From a virus (taxonomy: Duplodnaviria; Caudoviricetes): a stretch of 34,426 nucleotides of DNA. Under the pieces are notes generated by a model that was not told the DNA's origin, searched no databases, and saw only the letters and a list, made by a program, of their open reading frames with translations. A program made the translations under genes and the position numbers. The stretch is from positions 1 to 34,426 of IMG/VR virus record IMGVR_UViG_3300031965_000102. The stretch is one strand, 5' to 3'. Shown piece by piece: positions 4,110 to 34,042 of the stretch; the first letter of the stretch is position 1; every line of letters starts with the position of its first letter.

Positions 4110-5426
4110 TTGGCCAATGTCACCATCCCAGAAGCCTTCAAAGAGCTATTCATTCCCAAGCGATATAAAGTTTACTATGGCGGCCGTGGTGGTGCTAAGT
4201 CACACGCTATTGCCAGAGCGCTGCTTATTAAAGGCATGGAAAAGCCTTTGAGGATTGTTTGCGCTCGCGAGATACAGAGGGCAATTAAAGGCTCTGTACA
4301 TGCTTTGCTTGCTGACTTGATCCGTAGTCATGAACTGACAGGCTTCTATGAAATTCAAGAGGCGATGATAAAGGGCAAAAATGGGACAGAGTTTATATTT
4401 CGTGGCTTAAAGCACAACACCACTGATATGAAATCGCTTGAAGGTGCTGATATTCTGTGGATAGAAGAGGCCGAAAACGTTTCAAACAACTCATACGAGA
4501 TAGCAATCCCGACAATCCGAAAAGAAAAATCCGAAATATGGGTATCGTTCAACACCAAGAATATTACAGACCCTACGTACAAACGGTTTGTTGCCACTCA
4601 AGACCCTGATATATTATGCCGTAAGGTGTCATGGCGTGATAATCCATTTTTTCCGGAGGTTTTGGACAAAGAGCGTCAACGCTTAATGCGTGACGATTAT
4701 GAGGCGTATTTACATGTTTGGGAGGGTGAGCCTGATATTAGGCATTCCGGGGCTGTTTACGCTAAGAAAATAGCCAAGGCAAGGGAAGAGGGGCGTATTA
4801 CAACAGTTCCTTACGATGCTAATTTCCAAGTATTTACCGCGTGGGATTTGGGATTCGGTGATGCCACGTCAATTTGGTGGTTGCAGTTTGTCGGGCGTGA
4901 GCTGCGCTGGATAGATTTCTACGAAAACAACGGAGAATTACTAGACCACTACGCAAAGGTTATAAAAGAAAAGCCGTATAATTATTACGCTAAAGGGCAT
5001 TTTCTGCCGTTTGATGGTGCTGCTGGTAATATTAGAGGTGAGGCTGTCCCTACGCAATTAAAGAAAATGGGTATTGATACAACTACGCTGCCAAAAGCGA
5101 CGGACTTGCGAGCTGAAAGAGATTTGCTCAACAACACAATAGCCTTCTCGGTATTTGACGATAAGAAATGTGCTGATGGCATATTATCATTGGAGAGTTA
5201 TCATTTTGAATGGGATGAAGATAGGGGGGTGTTTAAGAAAGAGCCGCTACATGATTGGAGTTCAAATGGAAGCGACGCCGCCCGATATGCTGCTGTTGCC
5301 GCCAGTAAAATCAAAGGTGGATTATTAAACTCCACACCGACCGCAATCACCAACAAGGCAGCACCCTTACAATCAGTTTCAAGATTTAAAGGCAATAACG
5401 CAAAAAGATTGCGGGGTAGGAGATAA
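4110..5426 (+). CDS. terL: Terminase large subunit, PBSX-like
   Basis: Walker A YGGRGGAKS, Walker B WIEEAE, nuclease motifs AWDLGFGD and PLHDWSSNGSDAARY. TTG start. Confidence 0.95.
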   Translation: MANVTIPEAFKELFIPKRYKVYYGGRGGAKSHAIARALLIKGMEKPLRIVCAREIQRAIKGSVHALLADLIRSHELTGFYEIQEAMIKGKNGTEFIFRGLKHNTTDMKSLEGADILWIEEAENVSNNSYEIAIPTIRKEKSEIWVSFNTKNITDPTYKRFVATQDPDILCRKVSWRDNPFFPEVLDKERQRLMRDDYEAYLHVWEGEPDIRHSGAVYAKKIAKAREEGRITTVPYDANFQVFTAWDLGFGDATSIWWLQFVGRELRWIDFYENNGELLDHYAKVIKEKPYNYYAKGHFLPFDGAAGNIRGEAVPTQLKKMGIDTTTLPKATDLRAERDLLNNTIAFSVFDDKKCADGILSLESYHFEWDEDRGVFKKEPLHDWSSNGSDAARYAAVAASKIKGGLLNSTPTAITNKAAPLQSVSRFKGNNAKRLRGRR

Positions 5427-5954: not shown

Positions 5955-7643
5955 ATGAAAGAATATAAAAAAGTCATAGACGACTTCAACCGCATGAAAA
6001 CAGAGCGTTCCAATTGGGATGTTATGTATCAGGTGCTCGGTGAATACATTTCCCAAATCAAACAGAACTTTGAAGGGCAGCCCTCTAATGGCGAATTCCT
6101 AACAGAAGAGGTATTTGATTCTACCGGAGCATTTGCAGCTTACGGTTCTGCCAGTGCTTTGCTTGGGATGTTGTGGCCGGGAACTGCTAAACAAGCTCTC
6201 GAGATAACTCCTCCCGAAGATATGCCGGAATCCACAGAGCTTTCAGAGTTTTACGGAAACATGACCAAGAAGCTGACAAGGGCTATGGATGACCCGAAAG
6301 CTAACCTTGCGCTTGCCTTGGATGAATACATGCTTGACCAGATGATATTTGCAACGTCTGGTGTTGGTGTTGAGCGTGGGGATGAATCTAAGTTATTGTA
6401 TAAGGCTTATGGTGTTAAGGAGATTTACATAGGCGAGGGCAAAAACGGCAGGGTTAATAAGATAGCGTTGTTCTATGAATGGGATGCGGTAAGGGTAGTC
6501 GATGAATATGGCGAAGATAGCGTAAGCGAAAAAACCCGCAAGGCTGCTGAATCTGGAATGAACGCAAAGGTTAAAATCCTAATTGTAATACAAAAGCGCA
6601 AAGAGAAGAAAGCAGAGAAGGGCAAGTTTGCCATGCCCTATGAGTCCCTGCATCTTGAATACGAAACTTATCATTTACTTAAAGAGGAAGGATTCCACGA
6701 GTTACCCATTGCGGTTGTCAGGTTCCGCAAGTTAAACTATGAGAAGCAGGGACGTGGCCCCGGAATGAATGCACTACCTGATATTAGGGAGGCGAATGCT
6801 TTACGTGAGGCTGTTATCATCGCCACTGAAAAAGCCCTTGATATGCCGATTGGTGTTATTGATGACGGCATGTTGGGTGGTGGCACTATTGACACTTCCG
6901 CTCGAGCCGTGAATGTGTTTAATGCGTCTGCAAATATAGGCAATACGCCACCTGTTTTTGATATCGGTAAAGCTCCTGATATACGATACGCAGAGGCAAG
7001 GCTTGAGAAATTAGAACAAACAATATCCCAGCATTTTAGCATTGATAGATTAATAGACTTCAACAACGAAACGCAAATGACGTTTGGCGAGGCTCAAATC
7101 CGTGACCAGATAAGGACGGCCTCACTGCTCGGATTGTTCAGCAGACAGATAGCTGAGGGATTTACTCCGATTATCGAGCGTAGTATTAATATGTTATGGC
7201 GTGACGGTGAATTTGGAGTTATGCCTGGCAGTGAAGAGGAAATTGAATTAAAGGCGCTGGGAAAAGAGGTTAAATACTTCCCCGAAGAAATACAAAAACG
7301 CCTTAAGGCTGGTGAAGATATTTATGAGATAACCTATAAGACAAAAGCCGCTAATGCGGCAAGGGCAGAAGAATATATTGCCATTATTGACGTGATGACC
7401 TTTGCCACTCAGGCAATGGCGGTTGATGAGTCGGTAAGACACAGGGTTGACCTTCATGAGGGAATTAAGACTATTGCCAATATACGCGCGTTACCAGTTG
7501 GTATTATACGTCAGGATGACGAGGTTGAAGCTTTAACCAGGCAAGAACAAGAGCAAATGCAGCAGATGCAGCAGATGCAGATGGCAGAGCAAGCGGCTGG
7601 AGCTTATGAGAAGGCAGCTAAGGGAGATGCGGCATTAGCATGA
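5955..7643 (+). CDS. Portal protein (head-tail connector, Bbp21/T7 gp8-like)
   Basis: 562 aa, FDSTG..A, GRGPGMNALPDIR and MT..E..IR motifs, Q/M-rich C-terminus. Confidence 0.9.
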   Translation: MKEYKKVIDDFNRMKTERSNWDVMYQVLGEYISQIKQNFEGQPSNGEFLTEEVFDSTGAFAAYGSASALLGMLWPGTAKQALEITPPEDMPESTELSEFYGNMTKKLTRAMDDPKANLALALDEYMLDQMIFATSGVGVERGDESKLLYKAYGVKEIYIGEGKNGRVNKIALFYEWDAVRVVDEYGEDSVSEKTRKAAESGMNAKVKILIVIQKRKEKKAEKGKFAMPYESLHLEYETYHLLKEEGFHELPIAVVRFRKLNYEKQGRGPGMNALPDIREANALREAVIIATEKALDMPIGVIDDGMLGGGTIDTSARAVNVFNASANIGNTPPVFDIGKAPDIRYAEARLEKLEQTISQHFSIDRLIDFNNETQMTFGEAQIRDQIRTASLLGLFSRQIAEGFTPIIERSINMLWRDGEFGVMPGSEEEIELKALGKEVKYFPEEIQKRLKAGEDIYEITYKTKAANAARAEEYIAIIDVMTFATQAMAVDESVRHRVDLHEGIKTIANIRALPVGIIRQDDEVEALTRQEQEQMQQMQQMQMAEQAAGAYEKAAKGDAALA

Positions 7644-7948
7644 TTGAAATAGACCAGAAGTGTTTTGTCACCGCTCTGAATGAAGTTGCCGCAACTGATA
7701 GCGGCAAGATAGTATTAGCTTGTTTAAAGGATTCCTGTCAATGGGATGAGACGTATTTATCTTCTGATAATCCACAGGCAACGCAATTCTACGCAGTGAA
7801 GCGTGGGATATACGGAGGCCTTCGCAAACTAATCAAAATCAGTTACCTAAAAGAAATCGAATATAACTATAAAAGGAAAGCCGAAGATGGAAGAAAACCC
7901 ACAAAACCAAGAAACGCAAGGCCAAGCGACAGAGCAAAGCCAAAATGA
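7640..7948 (+). CDS. Bbp19-like protein
   Basis: TDSGKIVLACLKD motif, between portal and scaffold. Confidence 0.7.
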   Translation: MIEIDQKCFVTALNEVAATDSGKIVLACLKDSCQWDETYLSSDNPQATQFYAVKRGIYGGLRKLIKISYLKEIEYNYKRKAEDGRKPTKPRNARPSDRAKPK

Positions 7949-8729
7949 GTTTACTATCCCAGATAGCTATAAAGACCGTGGGTGGGCTGAGAAGATTAAA
8001 TCCACTGATGATTTGTGGAAAGGTTACGATAATGCCCAGTCTTTAATCGGCAAGCGTCCTGCGGGGATTCCATCTAATGATGCGAGTGACGATGATTGGA
8101 ATCAGTTCTATAAAGCGATGGGTAGACCTGATGAGCCAAAGTATGATTTTAACGACCCTGAGGGATTGCCGGAGGGGTTTGACACCAGCTCATTTAAAGA
8201 GCAAGCAGCGCAGATATTGCATAAAGCTGGATTAAACACTAAGCAAGCCGATGCGGTTTATCAGGAGTATTTAAAGCTTGAGCTGGAGTCCGCTAATCAA
8301 CAGGGAACGCAATCCGCAGAGCAGCAGGCCGCCCTTGAGGAGCAGTTTGAGAAACTAACCAAAGAGCATTTTGGTGATGATGTAGACAAATACACAGAGT
8401 TAACAAAATTAGAATTTGATAAACATGTACCTCAGTCTTTAAAGGAGACGTTCACTAAGCTTACTGACATGCCTGATGTTTTAACAGCCTTAATGGCTTA
8501 TACAAAAAGCAAGCAAGGAGAGATTGACAGGATTAAGAAAGAGTACAATGCAGAAGGCAGTTTATCGAGTGGCGAGCAGAGCGCATCAAGGAATATTGAA
8601 GATGTCCACAAAGAGTGGGCTAAGCTTGTTACGTCTCCATCTGCGAGAGATTTTACCAGCCCTGAATATAAACAGACTATGACAAAAATACAAGAGCTGC
8701 AGGGTATAATAGACCGCAGCAAAAAATAA
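7887..8729 (+). CDS. Capsid assembly scaffolding protein
   Basis: Acidic. Motifs DDLWKGYDNAQSLIG, FYKAMGRPDEP.Y and KAGLNTKQA, directly before the capsid gene. Confidence 0.85.
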   Translation: MEENPQNQETQGQATEQSQNEFTIPDSYKDRGWAEKIKSTDDLWKGYDNAQSLIGKRPAGIPSNDASDDDWNQFYKAMGRPDEPKYDFNDPEGLPEGFDTSSFKEQAAQILHKAGLNTKQADAVYQEYLKLELESANQQGTQSAEQQAALEEQFEKLTKEHFGDDVDKYTELTKLEFDKHVPQSLKETFTKLTDMPDVLTALMAYTKSKQGEIDRIKKEYNAEGSLSSGEQSASRNIEDVHKEWAKLVTSPSARDFTSPEYKQTMTKIQELQGIIDRSKK

Positions 8730-8758
8730 TTGCTATCCACGGTCATTTAATGTACAAT
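8730..8758 (+). promoter_or_regulatory. Sigma70-like promoter for the capsid operon
   Basis: TTGCTA(8730-8735)-N17-TACAAT(8753-8758), predicting +1 near 8765. Confidence 0.65.
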
Positions 8759-8764
8759 TATATT

Positions 8765-8841
8765 GACGGATACCTGCTTGCAGCCCATCTGACACAGGAC
8801 AATACCTGAGATAGCGCCCACCTATATGTGGATACCGTATC
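8765..8841 (+). ncRNA. Structured cis-regulatory RNA in the capsid 5' leader (three hairpins)
   Basis: P1 8765-8789, P2 CAGG/CCTG 8795-8808, P3 8810-8841. GGATACC and GCCC each occur twice, in swapped order. Confidence 0.6.
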
Positions 8842-8881
8842 GAATTAATCATTCTTTACAACACATACAGGAGGACTACTC

Positions 8882-9766
8882 ATGGTAGATTCCATTGACC
8901 AAAATCTAATCATACAATTCTCTGAATTAGTACACGCTGAGGCGCAGCAGATGACTGCACGCTTGAAGCCGTACGTCCAGCTGAAACAAATGACTGGTGA
9001 TGTCTTCGCTTATGATGGCTTAGGCCGCGTTGAGGCAAGGCAAGTATCTGGTCGTAATGTTCCGGCTACTTTTGATGATATAACTCATAACAGACGTAAA
9101 ATCACCCGTAACCGTTTTGTAGTTAACCTTCCGGTTGACGCCTCCGATGTTCGAGGCGCTTTAATTAATCCTGAATCTGAATACGCAAGGGCTATTGCTT
9201 CTGCCGCACTTCGCCAGTATGACCGCACTATTTATGATTGCGCGTTTGCTGACGTGCTGACAGGTCGTGATTTTGAAACTACAGTTACCGCCGCTAATGA
9301 TGGTGTAGTTACGGTAGATGCTACTGCTGGCTTGACATATGAAAAGATTTTGGAGATTAACCAGAACTTCATGGATAACGATGTTGGAACGGAAATGGCT
9401 GAAAAGCTATACGGTACTATCACGGGTGACGAGCATACGCAGTTAATGCAGGAAGAGGAGTTAATTTCTTCTGACTTTAACCGCGCATTCGTTGTTGAAT
9501 CCGGCAAGATTAAACAGGCTTGCGGTATTGACTTAATACCTTTTGCGGCTTCTGTACCTAGCCCGATTATCCCGGTTGCAAGCGCGGAGCGTGAATTATT
9601 ATTTGCCTCTTCTCGTGGTATTTGCCTTGGCATCTCTAAGGAGATGTCAATCAAGATTCAGGAACGTAACGACTTAATCGAGACTACGCAGGTTCAGGTA
9701 GTGTTTGAGATTGGTGCGGTTCGTACTGAGGGTGTATTGGTTCAGAAAGTACGTGTAACAGCATAG
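8882..9766 (+). CDS. Major capsid protein
   Basis: 294 aa, AGGAGG RBS, follows the scaffold. QFS..VH..AQQ...RL N-terminus and GAVRTEG..V C-terminus. Confidence 0.9.
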   Translation: MVDSIDQNLIIQFSELVHAEAQQMTARLKPYVQLKQMTGDVFAYDGLGRVEARQVSGRNVPATFDDITHNRRKITRNRFVVNLPVDASDVRGALINPESEYARAIASAALRQYDRTIYDCAFADVLTGRDFETTVTAANDGVVTVDATAGLTYEKILEINQNFMDNDVGTEMAEKLYGTITGDEHTQLMQEEELISSDFNRAFVVESGKIKQACGIDLIPFAASVPSPIIPVASAERELLFASSRGICLGISKEMSIKIQERNDLIETTQVQVVFEIGAVRTEGVLVQKVRVTA

Positions 9767-28754: not shown

Positions 28755-29858
28755 TTACCCCTCTTTAACTGCAATAAATTTTCCGTTTTCTACAGTATAT
28801 AAAACGTCTTCTTTTAAAATCTCGTTATCAATTTTGCCTGAAACTATATTAATAATGTTTTCATCTTCTTCATCGTATTCAGCGAGAACGAGCCAAGCTC
28901 CCAACTTGCCTTTTGCTTTACTTTTTACTCCCCTGCATAGGGCGATAGAGTTTATGCCCTTCGCCACAGCCGTACTGGAGTGTTCATTCGCCACAGCCGC
29001 ACTGTAGCTTTGATTCGCCACAGCCGCACTGGAGTGTTCATTCGCCACAGCCGTTTTCTCACTGACTCTTGTTAATATTTTAGCGCAAGCGCTTTGAATA
29101 AATGCGCTGATTTCAAAGTTAAATTTTACTTCAAAACCAATTTTTGTAACAAGGGGTTTGTACTGCCATAAATCGAACTCTCTATACTCTTCTCCATCAT
29201 CACCATAAAATGTAGCTTCTTGAAAAAGGTACTTATCGTTGTAAAATCTGTTTTTCTCCGGGTGAAGCTTAGCCTTGATTATCTCTATATTCACATAACC
29301 CAAGTTCTTCATTTCGCTATCACCAACTGACATGCCCATTTCTTCAAGGAAGGCTACAATATATTTAATGTATTTGGGGTTTATCGACCCGTTGCCCCTA
29401 CCCTTAATTTGCTGGTCACGCTCCATAGTGCAATGAGGCATGTTTTCTTTATCGCGCAAGGAGTATATTTCAACACGGCGGCCATAGTAACTGCCAACGC
29501 AATGGCGCATTAGAAAGCCCTCTCGTTTATATGCGTTTTCCCCTACTAACTTTATTATTTTAAACCCATCGCCAAAATCTTTAATAAGCTCAATATCTGA
29601 CTCCAACTCCTGAATGTCTGAGCCTTTCTTTATTAGTGTTTTATTCTATTTATCTGTGTTATTTTTAGCCTGTTCATAAGACATTTTACCGATACGTTTA
29701 GGACGCTTGTCGGAAGCAAAGTAATCAATAATATGCTCCACTTCGGACTGCTCCGGTTTGTCTTTTTCAAGACGTGGTTTTAGATGGGTGTTTATCCACG
29801 CGAGTACGTCTTGTTCTACTCCGACGCCTTGCGCATATTTTATTATTTCGTTTATCAT
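28755..29858 (-). pseudogene. PcfJ-like domain protein interrupted by one in-frame TAG (29646-29648)
   Basis: Track ORFs 29646..29858 and 28755..29606 are in the same frame: ...AKNNTDK*NKTLIKKGSDIQELESDIEL... PcfJ-like EGFLMRHCVGSY...IYSLRD...QIKG..N. Confidence 0.75.
28960..29053 (-). repeat. About 3.5 x 27-bp repeats encoding AVANEHSS(A/T)
   Basis: TTCGCCACAGCCG recurs at 28960, 28987, 29014 and 29041. Confidence 0.95.
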
Positions 29859-33480: not shown

Positions 33481-33552
33481 CTAACCCCTTAAATAGTAAT
33501 CATAATCCATCTGCTCGTCTTGTTCGCCATACAGGCTATATTCATCATCCAT
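33481..33552 (-). CDS. Acidic Tyr-rich micropeptide (23 aa, not in track)
   Basis: TGATG coupling. MDDEYSLYGEQDEQMDYDYYLRG ends 2 nt before the sak ATG. Confidence 0.55.
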   Translation of the reverse strand: MDDEYSLYGEQDEQMDYDYYLRG

Positions 33553-33752
33553 CACACCCCCATATCAATTGACTTTTTCCTTGCTTCATACCTCTCCCTA
33601 TGGAGCTTAAGCCGCTCCACCATCTTCCTCTTGTCCGACCGAATTTGCAGCATAGTCATTTTGTGGCTGTCACGTATAGTCATGATTAGCAGTACAAATA
33701 TGCACGCCCAAACGACCAGACAAACAACCGCAGCGTATAGTAAATACTCCAT
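33552..33752 (-). CDS. Single-TM membrane protein
   Basis: N-terminal TM segment, basic tail, GAGGGGG RBS. Confidence 0.7.
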   Translation of the reverse strand: MEYLLYAAVVCLVVWACIFVLLIMTIRDSHKMTMLQIRSDKRKMVERLKLHRERYEARKKSIDMGV

Positions 33753-33761
33753 AATACCCCC

Positions 33762-33902
33762 TCAGTTTAATAACATTTTAAAACAAGTGTCGTATGAATA
33801 CTTCACCTGGCATTGCTGCATCGCCACATTATCCGCCTTGGACATGGTGTATAAGAATACAGACAAGCACCAACCGACTAGTAATATGTATCTGATTTTC
33901 AT
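33762..33902 (-). CDS. Small membrane or secreted protein (46 aa, not in track)
   Basis: GGAGGGG RBS. MKIRYILLVGWCLSVFLYTMSKADNVAMQQCQVKYSYDTCFKMLLN. Confidence 0.65.
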   Translation of the reverse strand: MKIRYILLVGWCLSVFLYTMSKADNVAMQQCQVKYSYDTCFKMLLN

Positions 33903-34042
33903 AACCCCTCCATAGCATCTATCAATTCACAAATCCCATCTTTCAACTTTCCTTCGTTAAGCTCTCTGGCGATGCTTATAAGCTCCTGCCTTACCTGCTT
34001 GTAGAAATAGGCGTTAAAGTCTATTACGTTTGATTTCGGCAT
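33899..34042 (-). CDS. Small hypothetical protein (47 aa, not in track)
   Basis: AAGGAGG RBS. MPKSNVIDFNAYFYKQVRQELISIARELNEGKLKDGICELIDAMEGL. Confidence 0.7.
   Translation of the reverse strand: MPKSNVIDFNAYFYKQVRQELISIARELNEGKLKDGICELIDAMEGL

Follow-up and report, generated by a model that had tools for sequence, protein, structure and literature searches.

Many podoviruses from two capsid families, abundant ocean phages among them, carry a small bulged RNA module in the leader of the major capsid gene, and this module is real and widespread. The original prediction concerned a 34,426-nucleotide stretch of DNA from a tailed virus (Caudoviricetes), called the window here. It placed a promoter and three hairpins, P1 to P3, before the capsid gene, with the same asymmetric loop in P1 and P3. 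The promoter, hairpin and loop strings are all present (Table 1), with the loop strands GGATACC and GCCC occurring twice each. The base of P1 also includes a C8767·A8787 mismatch, which had gone unflagged.

The window on its own is weak evidence for this element, and homologues settle the case. The minimum free energy of the leader is only modestly low (z-score -1.82), and the minimum free energy structure differs from the proposed fold because P2 and P3 pair with the start region in it. A promoter scan of the window gives 7 sites against 5.6 expected. Shuffling the scaffold-capsid gap produces two modules by chance in 14 of 1000 rounds and a repeated 7-mer of one kind or another in 1076 of 2000.

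The genes around the leader are podovirus-like, with tail genes 3' of the major capsid gene. The assignment of the scaffold-like protein is a lead and not firm. Among its neighbours in the Atlas are clusters with PF05396 (33% of members) and one cluster of a capsid assembly protein (TM 0.49). Residues 69-79 of the capsid protein are strongly basic; close relatives conserve this stretch, and T7-like capsids do not. A search of the whole window for tRNA genes found none. Elsewhere in the window, a three-copy repeat with a 27-bp period (28960-29053) lies within an ORF with a weak PcfJ-like hit (28755-29606), and an array of 18-bp tandem repeats downstream of the ORF at 33520-33915 reaches the contig end (34198-34426); the array possibly represents replication-origin iterons.

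Table 1. Features of the head-gene region and capsid leader in the window
Feature	Position	Strand	Basis or detail
Terminase	4110-5426		podovirus-like window
Portal	5955-7643		
Bbp19-like small protein	7640-7948	+	29 of 30 feature hits have PF25181; Pfam search gave no match
Scaffold-like protein, candidate ligand	7887-8729	+	position; phrog_3742
Predicted sigma70-type promoter	8730-8758	+	TTGCTA (8730-8735)-N17-TACAAT (8753-8758); start predicted near 8765
P1 hairpin, module copy 1	8765-8789	+	long strand GG-A-UAC-C 8768-8774; short strand G-C-CC 8783-8786
P2 hairpin	8795-8808	+	covaries in close relatives; variable or replaced in distant ones
P3 hairpin, module copy 2	8810-8841	+	short strand 8816-8819; long strand 8830-8836
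A/U-rich spacer and Shine-Dalgarno sequence	8842-8874	+	GGAGG (8870-8874)
Major capsid protein	8882-9766	+	PF19821 / phrog_3437

Close relatives conserve the duplicated loop and show compensatory changes in the stems around it. Sufficient upstream sequence was available for 147 of 166 capsid loci, which gave 91 non-redundant leaders. Both loops are found in the window's arrangement in 75 of these, compared with none in each of 20 shuffle rounds. An alignment of 23 sequences, made up of the window and 22 of the 33 leaders with the short architecture, has 90.4% of its cells paired under a structure drawn by hand, against 29-47% when the partners are slid. Double changes occur at 10 of the 20 pairs, and two pairs are often broken (in 9 and 13 of the 23 sequences). 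P2 has double changes at all four of its pairs and is 73.9% paired; RNAalifold alone recovers nine pairs and misses P2. A model built from the alignment matches 36 of 82 sources, always on the + strand and, by coordinates, in capsid leaders; it matches the window once and does not match any of the distant groups. The expectation of a structured + strand RNA directly behind a conserved promoter is also borne out, since a predicted sigma70 promoter lies upstream of the module in 50 of the 75 relatives (control, 14 of 375). In 32 of these 50 the promoter lies 9-11 nt before the first GG.

The arrangement of the hairpins is less constant than the loops themselves. While the promoter and hairpins are kept with compensatory changes in relatives, P2 is not conserved in distant leaders: its length varies greatly, and the distance between the modules ranges from 15 to 56 nt. 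The opposite orientation of the two loops is not conserved either, and neither the three hairpins nor the pseudo-symmetry is supported as the defining trait of the element. Both loops have the same orientation in a Burkholderia/Yersinia-like group and in phage ZP6, and T7-like leaders have a single copy. The variable orientation and copy number argue against a rigid dimer or a fixed tertiary geometry. Inspection by eye gave no support for a four-way junction or a 5'-3' closing helix, and the predicted probability of cross pairs between the two copies is about zero.

The conserved unit is an 11-nt module. It starts with a G-C pair, its second pair is A·C or G·U, and after a 3-nt bulge whose middle base is A it closes with any Watson-Crick pair. 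The leader parser accepted any purine (R) opposite any pyrimidine (Y') at the second position, which is almost never Watson-Crick: the 206 modules include 139 A·C, 65 G·U, one A-U and one G-C. By leader, the 75 two-loop relatives comprise 32 with A·C in both copies, 39 with G·U in both, two discordant, two with A-U and none with G-C. The third bulge base is C (71) or A (1) with A·C, and G (49), U (28) or C (1) with G·U; it is the same in both copies in 70 of the 75 leaders. Given these counts, the most plausible view of the loop is a 3-nt bulge next to a non-Watson-Crick pair, with three variable bases that belong to one class, either amino or keto. R, Y' and the third bulge base may be joined in a triple or a wobble geometry (amino A, C and C/A; keto G, U and G/U). 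The first bulge base faces position 6 most often as U·G (91 of 150), followed by U·A (13), U·C (12), C·A (4), C·U (2) and others, and the C·A form dominates the pelagiphage sets. The pair above the bulge uses all four Watson-Crick forms, and variants with an insertion have a 4-nt bulge. Overall, the bases of the loop stay the same in leaders whose stems and spacing are free to differ.

The module has the character of a + strand RNA. Its stems vary with covariation, the flanking pairs include 37 G·U against 9 A·C, and RNA tetraloops cap the hairpins, all of which argues against a DNA site. cUNCGg caps are found in 33 of 46 T7-like modules and GNRA caps in 43 of 62 pelagiphage-like P1 modules (counts inflated by kinship of the sequences), and reverse-complement cap forms are almost absent. 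Nearest-neighbour folding gives the module a low probability (medians 0.38, 0.0 and 0.16), and its stability would therefore have to come from a ligand or from non-canonical contacts. The module follows immediately on a promoter and opens a long late operon, a placement like that of an antiterminator acting on host RNA polymerase, for which HK022 put is a precedent. Autographiviridae use their own polymerase for late genes, and the module is present there too. Together with the evidence against a DNA site, this makes a put-like antiterminator or a DNA-level site highly improbable.

The module extends across the PF19821 capsid family. Under a relaxed rule, 342 PF19821 loci gave 220 non-redundant leaders. 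At least two modules are found in 76 of 87 leaders of the close group (shuffles, 19 of 435) and in 46 of 63 of the Burkholderia/Yersinia-like group (20 of 315), where both are typically in the P3 orientation; 11 of the 17 leaders with fewer than two match the variant with an extra bulge base. The relaxed rule is noisy in the pelagiphage-like group, with 17 of 70 leaders against 26 of 350 shuffles, and a looser test finds a second pelagiphage copy in 56 of 58 against 48 of 1160 shuffles. Cultured carriers include HTVC010P, Lederberg, ZP6 (G·U type, its first copy identified by eye), Vibrio 1.182.O, DU_RP_II and YeP5. Module density around PF19821 starts peaks between -200 and 0 (0.77 and 0.58 per 100 nt, against 0.01-0.23 elsewhere). 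In a sequence-only scan with the PF19821 form, 9 of 120 matches precede PF19821 genes, and the rest, only part of which are annotated, look like chance or one coding-sequence family. Pattern counts in the carriers' own genomes are at control level. A first loose pattern scan was rejected as chance, with 3 of 120 matches having a downstream second long strand and none falling on the capsid profile.

Phages with T7-gp10-like capsids carry the module as well, in one copy and with a strong tie to the capsid gene. PHA00201 presumably denotes this T7-like capsid. In the HTVC019P group the module is found in 46 of 48 leaders, compared with 2 of 48 reverse complements and 26 of 240 shuffles. Other carriers are P-SSP7, Syn5, KBS-P-1A, P-SCSP1d, TRX32-1 and vRsoP-WF2. 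A second copy occurs in 4 of 97 T7-like leaders (shuffles, 24 of 485). A pattern of 19 letters, modelled on leaders of the HTVC019P group and of cyanophages, matches about 620 stretches. Among the 120 matches listed, its two free positions are complementary in 117, and 115 of the 118 ORFs behind it are major head proteins. A strict scan of 17, 17 and 12 kb of P-SSP7, HTVC019P and Syn5 finds one site each, always in the capsid leader. In P-SSP7, where hli and psbA lie between scaffold and capsid, the module stays at the capsid start. The profile similarity between the two capsid families is weak (E 1.4e-4). No module was found at the capsid starts of T7, SP6, phiKMV, P22, BPP-1, TPWB-05 and Vibrio D105; the scaffold and capsid genes abut in P22, BPP-1 and TPWB-05. 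Epsilon15 and Piluca each gave one long-range match inside the upstream gene, which was judged to be chance.

Several T7-like loci contain other elements. A Glutamine-II riboswitch lies upstream of the module in cyanopodovirus capsid leaders (L584:5523-5576 and L693:1552-1605), and in several such leaders (L794, which is Syn5, and L693) a hairpin resembling a tRNA T-arm was seen by eye just before the module. A further conserved hairpin is present in HTVC019P-group leaders (L590-L669); it ends in GGCAAC, lies about 110-135 nt upstream of the capsid start and is possibly a degenerate module. One group I intron lies at the end of a T7-like capsid ORF (L684:2417-2641). In the annotation of vRsoP-WF2 the capsid gene is split into two parts that flank a gene for endonuclease VII (L793:121-1580), and the module precedes the first part.

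Both copies of the module switch type together, about nine times on the capsid tree. The tree includes 70 capsids, five truncated ones being left out, and the A·C/G·U type changes nine times for copy 1, eight times for copy 2 and nine times jointly. Independent pairs agree in 6.6 of 7 cases and none oppose (p 0.016). Two pelagiphage-like capsids (L579 and L581, 76-77% to HTVC010P) have the G·U type among A·C-type relatives and are useful for ligand mapping. The main result against simple RNA-protein co-evolution is that no protein residue tracks the type: no column predicts it above 0.81 in capsid (69 rows), 0.78 in scaffold (55) or 0.77 in the Bbp19-like protein (42). Capsid position 59, considered as a specificity residue, fails the phylogenetic test (p 1). 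Selection against cross-pairing could produce the concerted change, since discordant copies would be perfect Watson-Crick partners. Alternatively, two modules could dock on each other by like-with-like non-canonical pairs in a self-contained tertiary fold, which would force concerted change and fit the identity of the third bulge base in the two copies. However, orientation and spacing vary, 93 of the 97 T7-like leaders have a single copy, and a few discordant pairs exist (L204, L278, L463 and L481), and such a fold is very unlikely.

The favored reading, at about even odds, is that a phage head protein, most likely the scaffold, binds the module to set capsid translation. Taken separately, scaffold as ligand is possible but somewhat unlikely, and capsid or another head protein is less probable again. 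The leader would be transcribed from the predicted promoter, and its two bulged modules would likely fold into a specific non-canonical shape. A head protein, most likely free scaffold, would then bind them and set the translation of the capsid protein; we infer the ligand, the binding and the direction of control. In the window's group the P3 region is predicted to be a competitor of the ribosome-binding site; a ligand that makes P3 fold would therefore free the site, and scaffold would activate capsid synthesis. A second option would be repression by free capsid.

Energy estimates are consistent with this competition in the close group. Opening the ribosome-binding site costs 11.0 kcal/mol with the real 5' part and 8.4 with a shuffled one (27 of 38, from every second of the 75 leaders), and the cost falls from 12.0 to 8.2 when both modules are forced in all 75; the leaders tested are related to each other, and the energy model takes no account of non-canonical pairs. 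The register of the competition is not fixed, and only 5 of 74 T7-like leaders have the module strands as the main partner of the ribosome-binding site. The module lies in the 5' leader, as judged from the predicted transcription start, and ends 43-113 nt before the capsid start in the close group and 48-122 nt before it in T7-like leaders. It does not overlap the ribosome-binding site and lies too far away to occlude it directly. The spacer is 72% A/U, compared with 52% in the capsid gene (75 leaders).

The exclusive tie to capsid genes, both in the ORFs listed behind the 19-letter pattern and at the strict-scan sites, favors binding by a head protein. Further points in favor are the constancy of the loop bases, the joint switching of the two copies, the place of the module at the capsid start in P-SSP7, its absence where scaffold and capsid genes abut, and the precedent of the P22 scaffold. 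Against it, scaffolds are net acidic (median -11), and T7, SP6 and phiKMV have a scaffold and a separate capsid leader yet lack the module. The original prediction also named a Bbp19-like protein as a possible ligand. It is not the common one, because the annotations of P-SSP7, HTVC019P and Syn5 have no gene separating scaffold from portal, and BPP-1 lacks the module despite having bbp19. The capsid-only context, together with the variable start distance (43-122 nt), copy number and orientation, would also suit an assembly tether, in which scaffold or portal is captured on capsid mRNA and procapsids nucleate co-translationally with output unregulated. Many podoviruses lack the module and the literature searches turned up no precedent, and a tether of this kind is quite unlikely.

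The main rival, which is rather unlikely, is a host factor that enhances or stabilises a very abundant message. A host protein or the ribosome would read the module as an rRNA-like C-loop mimic, or the module would block an RNase. The absence of any phage protein that tracks the RNA type fits this, as do the location of P1 at the predicted 5' end and the occurrence of cUNCGg and GNRA caps, which are stable. An A-CAA-U/A-C variant is also common to SAR11 phages from the two capsid families, whose long strand is the commonest 16S helix-15 C-loop strand, ACAAU, in Table 12 of PMC4551918. Low GC alone could explain the SAR11 variant, however, the module is found only before capsid genes, and the types flip among close relatives on near-identical P2 backgrounds. 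By reasoning from length, the stems are too short for an RNase III site.

Binding of a head protein would bear on the balance of capsid and scaffold in tailed phages, an old question with few known sites. Tentatively, the module may be an ancient RNA site common to the T7-like and PF19821 lineages, at which a head-assembly protein binds capsid mRNA and gates translation on scaffold supply or nucleates procapsids, with two interchangeable amino/keto isoforms that change in both copies together. If this is true, HK97-fold head assembly is coupled to RNA in some of the most abundant marine phages. The breadth over two capsid families and the three-base amino/keto swap are unusual for an RNA structure. 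With its 11 nt the module is a well-defined target, and because phages that carry it are in culture and tractable (Syn5, P-SSP7, ZP6 and HTVC010P-type), direct testing is possible; it also serves as a short capsid-gene marker in metagenomes.

The module as a unit is apparently undescribed. As the original prediction had it, no named family can be assigned: Rfam 15 covariance models have no match on the module in the window and 60 loci, where the only matches are Glutamine-II riboswitches and a group I intron. The literature searches, whose coverage leaves out most subscription journals, found no description of it. CsrA/RsmA sites and TwoAYGGAY are GGA-containing repeats, and the module resembles them in this respect. 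It is not a CsrA/RsmA site, however: its GG is paired with CC and is not part of an unpaired GGA, and GGG and AGA variants without GGA exist. The main texts of PMC5737381 and PMC2864571 do not mention 'capsid'.

Other phage RNAs and sites resemble the module in position or function. GP20-a and GP20-b (RF02991 and RF03003) and the candidates of Fremin 2023 are likewise structured RNAs upstream of phage structural genes and are proposed to be cis-regulatory (PMC10690425). Among the candidates covered in the accessible part of that source, DNAVirus_231, 3706, 3823, 3864 and 5397 lie before PHA00201 genes and DNAVirus_5613 lies before capsid_maj_Podo; by gene position, the only basis of comparison, these anonymous candidates may overlap the T7-like form of the module. 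The P22 scaffold provides a functional parallel, since head-gene control is post-transcriptional there and the scaffold N-terminus has been implicated in autoregulation of translation, according to the available portion of 10.1101/2022.12.13.520362. In contrast to the RNA described here, which belongs to the capsid gene, the P22 scaffold controls its own synthesis, and P22 has no module before gene 8 or gene 5.

The closest structural relative is the C-loop of 16S helix 15 and the thrS operator. Like the module, it has a 5-nt long strand, a 2-nt short strand and a 3-nt bulge with a central A, and the pelagiphage variant shares its long strand ACAAU (PMC4551918, Table 12). C-loops are described as increasing the helical twist for protein binding (PMC9516175; see also PMC8570644, all as far as these sources were accessible). 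The members listed in PMC4551918 and PMC9516175 close the 1-7 pair with Watson-Crick pairing, whereas 204 of the 206 modules have A·C or G·U there. C-loops are also characterized by a tWH pair of the first bulge base with position 6, typically C·A, and by crossing base triples in 3D. In the module the first bulge base is mostly U opposite G, and the third covaries as amino or keto. Because its 1-7 closing pair is not Watson-Crick, the module is, judged by sequence, C-loop-like yet outside that family.
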